This document shows positions 28,124 to 28,576 of a stretch of DNA of 33,964 nucleotides, piece by piece. Below the pieces are notes generated by a model, which was not told the DNA's origin, ran no database searches, and saw only the letters and a program-made list of their open reading frames with translations. The stretch's first letter is position 1. Each line of letters begins with the position of its first letter. The DNA lies in the NCBI RefSeq assembly GCF_003334385.1, contig NZ_QOWN01000048.1. The stretch is one strand, 5' to 3'. Position numbers and translations under genes: made by a program. Source of the DNA: Escherichia coli (GTDB lineage Bacteria > Pseudomonadota > Gammaproteobacteria > Enterobacterales > Enterobacteriaceae).

Positions 28124-28203
28124 TCTCTCACCTGAAACGGGTGCCATATCGGCTGAACCTCAGCAACCAGTTGACGGGGACTTTCGTCCCCGTCGCGGTT
28201 TTC

Positions 28204-28344
28204 CTACTGCTTACACTGTAAGAACGCCGCAAACTCCGCTCCCCACAAATTCAGCCGGAACTCACACAACGAGCCGTGTAACATCCAGATGGTGAAGATT
28301 ACCGTCATACAAATTGTGACGGTGATGAGCGATTTTTGCGACAT
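28204..28344 (-). CDS. Hok/Gef-family type I toxin (46 aa), absent from the supplied ORF track because it is under 60 aa
   Basis: My reverse-complement translation gives MSQKSLITVTICMTVIFTIWMLHGSLCEFRLNLWGAEFAAFLQCKQ: a hydrophobic transmembrane segment followed by SLCEFR and AEFAAF, matching the Hok-family pattern (SLCE[IF]R ... EVAAF). AGGAGG Shine-Dalgarno 8 nt upstream. Confidence 0.6.
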   Translation of the reverse strand: MSQKSLITVTICMTVIFTIWMLHGSLCEFRLNLWGAEFAAFLQCKQ

Positions 28345-28527
28345 AGCGCTTGCCTCCTGAGTGGAGAGGCGCTAACCTTCTACTTGCTTAAGGTATGATG
28401 GTTAGGGCCTCGGGTTAAACAAAATGTTTGACTCGGGGCCTTTCCACATCAGGCCTTCAGGTTCTCCCTCCAGCCATCAGCCGAAAGGCACCCGCGCATA
28501 ATCTACGATTTTTGCCCTGCACGGGCA

Positions 28528-28553
28528 ACAAAAAACCCGCCATCACAGCGGGT
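28528..28553 (-). terminator. Rho-independent terminator downstream of the lom-like gene
   Basis: On the minus strand, ACCCGC-TGTGATG-GCGGGT hairpin followed by UUUUUU, 24 bp after the lom stop. A second hairpin (TTGCCC-TGCAC-GGGCAA) follows immediately. Confidence 0.55.
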
Positions 28554-28576
28554 TATGACATGTTGTCGGGTATTAC

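Follow-up and report, generated by a model that had tools for sequence, protein, structure and literature searches.

The hokA-E/sok loci on the chromosome of Escherichia coli K-12 carry mok frames (mokB, mokC). The hok/mok/sok (parB) system of plasmid R1 encodes a small inner-membrane toxin of 52 aa with conserved C-x-T, LCE and E motifs, on an mRNA closed by pairing of its tac and fbi elements, with a ucb box that pairs with a GAGG box and a protective 3' hairpin, and its cis-antisense RNA of about 60 nt consists of a 5' tail and a single hairpin (PMC9841398 and papers of the Gerdes laboratory). Synthesis of R1 Hok needs translation of mok up to the hok Shine-Dalgarno sequence (SD) (PMC9841398). 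Phages carry such systems too, and hokW-mokW-sokW of phage 933W and of Sakai prophage Sp5 (Plunkett 1999 annotation; PMC8621323) belongs to the same phage group and is of the same system type as the cassette described here; in that system a mutation of the sokW -10 hexamer in a 'pro-less' construct abolished antitoxin activity (Takada et al. 2021, PMC8621323). Hok peptides have furthermore been catalogued (Escalera-Maurer et al., bioRxiv 10.1101/2025.08.07.668861), with mok, sok and mRNA structure deliberately omitted, and the RNA-level anatomy is absent from the text of that preprint.

Here we analysed a window of 33,964 nt, the whole of the stretch of E. coli DNA under study (assembly GCF_003334385.1, contig NZ_QOWN01000048.1), which from about 12.1 kb to its end is a 933W-like (Sepvirinae) prophage, inserted in ynfG of the E. 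coli chromosome and in this part 99.6% identical to phage Lyz12581Vzw. Next to lom it very probably carries a self-contained type I toxin-antitoxin cassette of the hok/sok type (about 28139-28528), a moron of this prophage that would work by the mechanism proposed below. The cassette shares its toxin motifs with R1 and, as predicted from its sequence, also the tac/fbi closure, the ucb box on a GAGG box, the protective 3' hairpin and the antisense RNA layout; it differs in being phage-carried rather than plasmid-borne, in its shorter toxin (46 aa) and in its stronger hok SD. It is not the published hokW-sokW locus, the primer sequence of which is absent from the window. HokW is a different peptide, of 51 aa and in the HokD cluster, with 37% identity over 35 residues to the 46-aa Hok, and in 933W the two loci are separate and lie 13 kb apart (hokW at 58460-58734, the lom-adjacent cassette at 45428-45856). 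As distinct loci, they give 933W-type phages two Hok loci.

Annotation and prior knowledge

This kind of cassette is already known. More than 1500 genomes in RefSeq/PGAP have it labelled 'Hok/Gef family protein', a name also borne by WP_000078907.1, to which the peptide in the window is identical; the names given in some phage records are 'Hok/Gef family protein', 'MokW-like host killing', 'small toxic polypeptide' and 'host toxic membrane protein'. The gap between lom and L0129/ECs_1237 is empty in the original 933W record and in the Sakai reference genome, which is why it appeared 'intergenic' at first; the original prediction of an unannotated gene thus stands for these two records and fails for RefSeq/PGAP genomes and several phage records. 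Literature searches returned no transcript evidence for either strand and no name for the lom-adjacent locus.

The peptide is also identical, residue for residue, to entry 72_1589 of the Hok catalogue, and the allele of P88-type phages is entry 72_1621, such that at the peptide level there is no difference from catalogue cluster 72. According to the text of the preprint, cluster 72 is of high abundance with a predicted SD GGAGG, a clone of 72_1589, LRP157, was made to assay its toxicity, and 42 of 45 Hok constructs were toxic, the three named non-toxic ones not including LRP157 (bioRxiv 10.1101/2025.08.07.668861).

In practice the present analysis is of small value, chiefly for curation. A second Hok/Sok cassette of Stx-converting phages goes unrecorded in the 933W and Sakai annotations and in tracks from which ORFs shorter than about 50 codons are dropped. 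Any study of Stx-prophage stability, induction or lysis timing, processes to which hokW-sokW has been linked, should reckon with the presence of two Hok loci in phages of the 933W type.

The 46-aa Hok peptide

The minus strand carries a 46-codon ORF (28204-28344, 46 aa plus stop) that translates as MSQKSLITVTICMTVIFTIWMLHGSLCEFRLNLWGAEFAAFLQCKQ and contains SLCEFR and AEFAAF, as noted when it was first described as Hok-like. It is a member of the Hok/Gef family of membrane toxins, with matches to Pfam HOK_GEF (PF01848; E 4.7e-8, residues 8-44 against model positions 6-42 of 42) and to phrog_251 ('MokW-like host killing'; E 2.8e-24, residues 1-46 against 2-49 of 50). Read from the sequence, an N-terminal hydrophobic helix, LITVTICMTVIFTIWML, is followed by a polar C-terminal part, HGSLCEFRLNLWGAEFAAFLQCKQ. 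Against Hok of plasmid R1, BLASTP gave 30% identity over 44 residues and paired C12, T14, L26, C27, E28 and E37 with R1 C16, T18, L30, C31, E32 and E41, and C44 aligned to Y48 of R1 Hok, a position at which the family has C or Y. All seven family-conserved positions (M1, C16, T18, L30, C31, E32 and E41 in R1 numbering), which occur in >80% of Hok peptides according to the catalogue text (bioRxiv 10.1101/2025.08.07.668861), were therefore matched, including the Cys and Glu residues on which the original prediction had proposed that family membership be checked.

Within the family the peptide belongs to a separate cluster. The best NCBIfam match was HokA, yet the score against the HokA equivalog NF007290 was 38.4 bits (E 9e-10) against a cut-off of 89, and that against the Hok subfamily NF007279 was 22.7 bits against a cut-off of 73; neither was reached. 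With a score so far under the HokA equivalog cut-off (38 versus 89 bits), the peptide is not an orthologue of any K-12 locus, although the K-12 hokA-E products belong to the same Pfam family.

A predicted hok promoter and structured hok mRNA

The predicted hok promoter was placed by its -35 hexamer TTGCCC (28523-28528, minus strand; a consensus-based assignment with a consensus score of 8/12) and its -10 hexamer TAGATT (28500-28505, minus strand), which precedes the presumed +1 G at 28493 by 6 nt. TTGCC is kept between the Stx-phage and P2-like (P88) contexts whereas the 17-nt spacer diverges, and the -10 hexamer of homologues reads TAGATT, TAAATT, TACAGT or TAGAAT at a constant distance to an invariant GGGTGCC; the hokW promoter has the same layout, TAGAAT-N6-GGGTGC. 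A consensus promoter scan found neither this promoter nor that of sok, both being weak consensus matches, and both were recognised through conservation and comparison with hokW/sokW.

The predicted full-length hok mRNA is about 358 nt (28136-28493, minus strand); the family model supplied its 5' end, and its 3' end was placed by the extent of homology among cassettes. Position 1 of the Rfam model RF01794 ('sok') aligned to 28493, and the model matched the hok strand over its full length (28493 to 28333, model 1-157) with 42.1 bits and E 1.7e-7, short of the gathering score of 59. As a control, hokW/mokW/sokW as annotated in 933W scored 113.5 bits, again on the hok-sense strand, with the match starting at the 5' end of the mRNA and reaching the hok AUG. 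Since RF01794 lies on the hok-sense strand at an annotated locus, the model describes the hok leader, and the possibility that a 'sok' model on the hok strand signalled a wrong orientation was ruled out. Judged by this match, the cassette is a divergent member of the RF01794 family.

A long structured leader had been suggested when the locus was first noticed, and this was borne out by the full-length RF01794 match, by the fold and by covariation. The minimum free energy (MFE) of the 358-nt transcript was -158.5 kcal/mol (z = -7.1 versus shuffles), and in the consensus structure of ten non-identical homologues 95.5% of cells were paired, with 13 pairs changed on both sides versus 0-5 in slid controls and a value attained in none of 500 shuffles. 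The ends of the molecule are formed by a tac element, GGGUGCC-UUU-CGGCUG (28478-28493, minus strand), and an fbi element, CAGCCG-AUAU-GGCACCC (28139-28155, minus strand), its 3' fold-back partner. Both the MFE and the consensus structure (helices 1 and 2) join GGGUGCC with GGCACCC and CGGCUG with CAGCCG, and these cells were paired in 98.6% and 95.0% of cases (columns 345-362 of alignment A2 versus columns 1-15). Variation was confined to compatible G-C to G-U changes, and the fbi variants GGCACUC and GGCAUCC still pair through G-U. A 3' fold-back element is also present in hokW, where it ends GCACCC.

In truncated mRNA the MFE structure pairs tac instead with a ucb-like box, AAAGGCCCC (28435-28443, minus strand), which in the full-length form pairs with CGAGGCC (helix 5), a pairing that corresponds to the R1 ucb box with the mok SD. 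The box is near-invariant in homologues and is also found in the hokW leader (AAAAGCCCC), which has the same layout of tac (GGGUGC), ucb, GAGGC and sokT loop over a length of 169 nt versus 149 nt in the lom-adjacent cassette. The Sok-target (sokT) hairpin (28366-28413, minus strand) consists of GAGGC-CUAACC, a loop CUUAAGCAA with the YUNR motif CUUA, and GGUUAG-C-GCCUC, and it agrees with the Rfam consensus hairpin and its loop CUaaACAA. Alignments show a compensatory change in its stem (CUUC/GAAG to UAUC/GAUA), and the YUNR motif is present in all 11 homologues as CUUA, CUUG, CUAA or CUAG.

The AGGAGG ribosome-binding site noted in the original prediction was found at 28353-28358 (minus strand), 8 nt before the ATG, inside a hairpin at 28344-28374 (UAGCGCCUCUCC...GGAGGCAAGCGCUA) whose helices 7 and 8 are 95-100% paired. 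The hok start region is also predicted to pair with the 3' end of the ORF, where a 28-nt stretch, UUGCGGCGUUCUUACAGUGUAAGCAGUA (28205-28232, minus strand), contributes to helix 9 of the consensus fold (AUGUCGCAAA with UUUGCGGCGU) and, in a local hairpin, to helix 13. Ten of 11 homologues share this stretch without change and the eleventh, L011, departs from it by one base, whereas the remaining ORF has many synonymous differences; the near-absence of synonymous change is explained by its pairing with the hok AUG region. In the 3' UTR, a G+C-rich hairpin, GACGGGGAC-GAAA-GUCCCCGUC (28173-28194, minus strand; helix 14), shows two compensatory pairs and no U-run after it on the minus strand; by analogy with plasmid R1 (PMC9841398) it may halt 3' trimming and so form the end of a truncated, active mRNA. 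The segment next to it, CAACUGGUUGCUGAGG (28158-28173, minus strand), is predicted to sequester the sokT loop in the full-length mRNA through helix 6, of whose 11 pairs 4 were changed on both sides and in which 95.4% of cells were paired.

A predicted Sok-like antisense RNA

The sok part of the mok/sok-type control that had been proposed for this locus found support in the sequence. The plus strand carries a putative promoter (28350-28378) made up of TTGCCT (28350-28355), a 17-nt spacer and TAACCT (28373-28378), identical in hexamers and spacing to the experimentally validated 933W sokW promoter (TTGCCT-N17-TAACCT). In 10 of 10 homologues the -10 hexamer is invariant and the -35 hexamer is TTGCCT, TTGACT or TTGCTC, with a variable spacer of 17-18 nt. 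By analogy with annotated sokW, the predicted Sok-like RNA would be about 59 nt (28385-28443, plus strand) and so lie within the interval 28345-28480 in which a plus-strand antisense RNA had been anticipated. It is predicted to have a free 5' tail of about 15-20 nt, an 18-bp hairpin (28409-28438) and then CCUUU, with a fold of -30.3 kcal/mol (z = -6.2) and a 3' tail of only three U residues. Owing to G-U pairs, the antisense version of the hairpin exceeds the hok-strand version in stability by 6-15 kcal/mol (10 of 10 homologues), as would be expected of selection acting on the antisense RNA itself.

Proposed mechanism

From these elements we propose that a constitutive promoter would give rise to a stable hok mRNA of about 358 nt in which tac pairs with fbi. 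While the RNA is full-length and closed, base pairs would cover the Sok-target loop as well as the ribosome-binding site and start codon of hok, permitting neither translation nor Sok binding. Slow 3' trimming to the G+C-rich hairpin (28173-28194) would strip fbi, after which the 5' end would re-pair with the ucb-like box and the Sok-target hairpin with its YUNR loop would form. The short, unstable antisense RNA (about 59 nt, from the plus-strand promoter TTGCCT-N17-TAACCT) would then bind the target hairpin, most likely with cleavage by RNase III. Should the supply of Sok stop, by loss of the element or shut-off of transcription, the 46-aa Hok would be made, enter the inner membrane and kill or lyse the cell. 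Candidate roles are prophage addiction, which like abortive infection had been suggested at the outset, the exclusion of other phages (as for R1 hok/sok) and help with lysis (as for hokW-sokW).

The absence of a conserved mok frame

The one unusual trait of the cassette is that it lacks a conserved mok frame, and here the mok part of the proposed mok/sok-type control fell. No conserved mok frame was found when all three frames, in-frame extensions and near-cognate starts were checked. In the window, every frame is shut by stop codons between the target loop and the hok SD, and in 7 of 11 alleles (the window, 933W, phi367, P88, P88_4B11, L008 and L011) no ORF with an ATG, GTG or TTG start extends as far as the hok SD. 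A mok-equivalent frame is opened by a TTG in the sokT loop in only four of the 11 alleles, and such a frame is therefore not conserved. The GAGG of the sokT hairpin is the counterpart of the mok SD, with no start codon after it; in hokW the in-frame mokW start comes 7 nt after GAGGC, the distance at which mok of R1 also begins behind its GAGG box, whereas the mokW AUG aligns to AUC, CUU or UAU in homologues of the lom-adjacent cassette. A small upstream ORF (ATG at +45) was considered as mok and rejected, being broken in L008 (ATGTGA) and varying from 8 to 24 codons elsewhere. Without mok, Sok cannot act here by blocking mok translation as it does in R1, and Hok must initiate at its own AGGAGG-N8-AUG.

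How this initiation might be controlled was explored by folding. For the window, the hok SD had an unpaired probability of 0 when the RNA was full-length and of 0.11 after truncation; the range in truncated RNA was 0.0 to 0.34, and with the Sok target blocked in constrained folding the probability was about 0. The effect on SD release was thus in the right direction and small, and nearly absent in P88-type alleles. One possible account, which we put forward tentatively and consider doubtful, is that Hok loci of cluster 72 are a mok-independent hok/sok switch in which GAGGC is purely an RNA element, an anti-anti-SD. In processed mRNA, GAGGC would pair with GCCUC (28366-28370) and thereby hold the adjacent anti-SD (CCUCUCC) off the hok AGGAGG, leaving Hok translatable; Sok bound to the GAGGC side would free the anti-SD and so shut the hok ribosome-binding site, and the Sok-mRNA duplex might also be cut by RNase III. 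If true, translation of the toxin would be controlled directly by RNA structure, with no leader peptide involved. More generally, if Hok is still made and under Sok control, the widespread cassette would be a naturally occurring case in which to test whether the hok/sok design can do without mok coupling.

Several points were counted against the overall reading of a self-contained hok/sok-type cassette, namely the RF01794 and NCBIfam scores under their cut-offs, the weak promoters, the three-U Sok tail and a +G frameshift that replaces the Hok C-terminus in 11 of 184 phage records, so that some lineages can do without hok. The absence of mok was also counted there, as it could mean a translationally silent locus, given the need for mok translation in R1 (PMC9841398).

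That silence would be the core of a different reading, in which the locus is a decaying or silent Hok relic whose frame is intact but whose toxin is never made without mok-coupled translation, the DNA being carried along by hitch-hiking or as an RNA element only. In its favour, besides the missing mok frame and the R1 requirement for translation up to the hok SD, folding predicts that the hok SD of P88-type alleles stays nearly fully paired in truncated RNA as well, and the frameshift alleles exist. On the K-12 chromosome, moreover, several hok loci are reportedly inactive (Pedersen and Gerdes 1999). We nevertheless consider a relic unlikely, since the peptide is under purifying selection: the window and 933W alleles of hok differ by 7 synonymous and 0 non-synonymous changes, and dN/dS was 0-0.48 among homologues and 0.2-0.5 against distant alleles. 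The phi367 allele, near-identical in leader and 3' UTR, has a strongly diverged coding core (about 30% at the nucleotide level) and still retains the Hok pattern, and no allele has lost its strong hok SD (AGGAGG or AAGGAG at N7-8). The antisense promoter and Sok hairpin are invariant or compensated, an upkeep not expected with nothing to repress, and the cassette is found in 29% of complete E. coli genomes.

An autonomous cassette in unrelated genomic contexts

Comparison with other phages set the boundaries of the cassette at about 28528 (the -35 hexamer) and 28139 (the 3' fold-back element), a length of about 390 bp, and in distant matches homology always covered 28139-28513, a unit of about 375 bp. 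Similarity in the alignments opens at the TTGCC of the -35 hexamer and closes exactly at GGCACCC, and the unit therefore comprises promoter and transcript without lom or the downstream gene. In Sepvirinae it lies between lom and L0129, in P2-like P88 phages after ogr/D, and in a lambdoid prophage between gpJ and a tail fibre gene; further copies lie on a plasmid and at another chromosomal site, making at least four unrelated contexts. The 500-bp region was present in 198 phage records and the 391-bp core in 1551 of 5426 complete E. coli genomes. The cassette thus fits the description of a phage moron, an autonomous promoter-gene unit between conserved phage genes in unrelated contexts, and the independent moron first suggested from the sequence was confirmed by the recurrence of a same-ended unit in Stx, P88-type, lambdoid and plasmid settings. 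PADLOC gave no match for Hok or the neighbouring ORF.

The intrinsic terminators said to bracket the locus both exist, as minus-strand stems at 28554-28534, which is the lom terminator, and at 27694-27675. The latter follows a separate gene (27746-28123/28147), so the two do not bracket hok alone, and as limits of the module they were rejected in favour of the comparative boundaries. Their arrangement could be read to mean that the region mainly serves its neighbours, as the lom terminator plus the promoter and leader of the L0129/ECs_1237-like gene, with the small ORF incidental: the lom terminator abuts the hok -35 hexamer, no canonical terminator follows fbi, such that read-through into the gene from 28123 is possible, and the next terminator comes only after that gene. 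We regard this as highly improbable, since the same-ended cassette occurs without lom and the L0129 gene in P2-like phages, the lambdoid prophage and the plasmid, and the ORF has significant family matches (PF01848 and phrog_251). A chance ORF in an intergenic spacer, for which only its shortness (46 codons) and the blank in the 933W and Sakai records could speak, is already refuted by the profile matches, the conservation through synonymous change and, according to the text of the preprint, the published cloning and testing of an identical peptide.

The gene that follows the hok/sok-type cassette probably starts at the ATG at 28123 rather than at 28147; phrog_610 aligns from residue 9 of the downstream ORF, and the P27 record uses the later start.

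Variation and surroundings of the hok cassette

Among 184 phage records, 11 (LC616046 and 10 others) carry a hok allele in which a single G inserted in a G-run, at the equivalent of window position ~28243, shifts the frame after codon 35, so that the encoded peptide has 44 aa and lacks the AEFAAFLQCKQ tail. A second variant was found in phage phi367, where the hok coding core (equivalent to window 28233-28340) is ~30% diverged in nucleotides and the leader and 3' UTR are nearly identical to those of 933W. The allele retains the Hok residue pattern and appears to be mosaic or recombinant.

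On the minus strand, the gene next after the hok cassette is an L0129/ECs_1237-like ORF of 133 aa (window 27746-28147) when the longer start is taken, and its first 8 codons then partly coincide with the hok 3' fold-back element (fbi; window 28139-28155). The phrog_610 alignment begins only at residue 9, the P27 record begins the gene at a later ATG (28123), and this ATG is preceded by an AGGTGA Shine-Dalgarno motif. The true length of the gene is probably 125 aa, with its start just beyond the hok cassette. On the plus strand, the scanner score identified a predicted intrinsic terminator at window 28172-28195, composed of the reverse complement of the G+C-rich hok 3' hairpin followed by CGGTTTTCC, which might halt antisense transcription arriving from the downstream gene.

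In lambda, lom occupies the slot between gpJ and the tail-fibre gene. A lambda-like prophage of E. coli TB06053 carries the hok cassette (1201-1579) between these same two genes, i.e. in lambda's lom slot, which suggests that the lom/hok position is a place where morons insert repeatedly.

Prophage junction and accessory cargo

Chromosomal DNA with rspAB, ynfA-F and speG makes up the first 12 kb of the window (1-12100), and the ORF at 462-1757 encodes the integrase of a second, adjoining prophage. The prophage insertion target is ynfG, with an 84-nt 4Fe-4S fragment after ynfF as the sole remainder at the junction (window ~12030-12130).

Accessory cargo of this phage group includes a plus-strand IbrA/IbrB-like pair (PAPS-reductase-like and ParB-like; window 13931-15786) and, on the minus strand, a Panacea-domain protein (15875-16399) and a 2792-aa LPD38-domain protein (16550-24928). 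The Panacea domain is typical of antitoxins; PADLOC gave no match for the protein found here.

At the prophage end two plus-strand matches to sRNA-Xcc1 (RF02221) scored above the Rfam gathering score, at window 12439-12527 (69 bits) and 12979-13064 (73 bits). Directly 3' of each lies a copy of an antA/antB antirepressor gene, one of the two copies being truncated.
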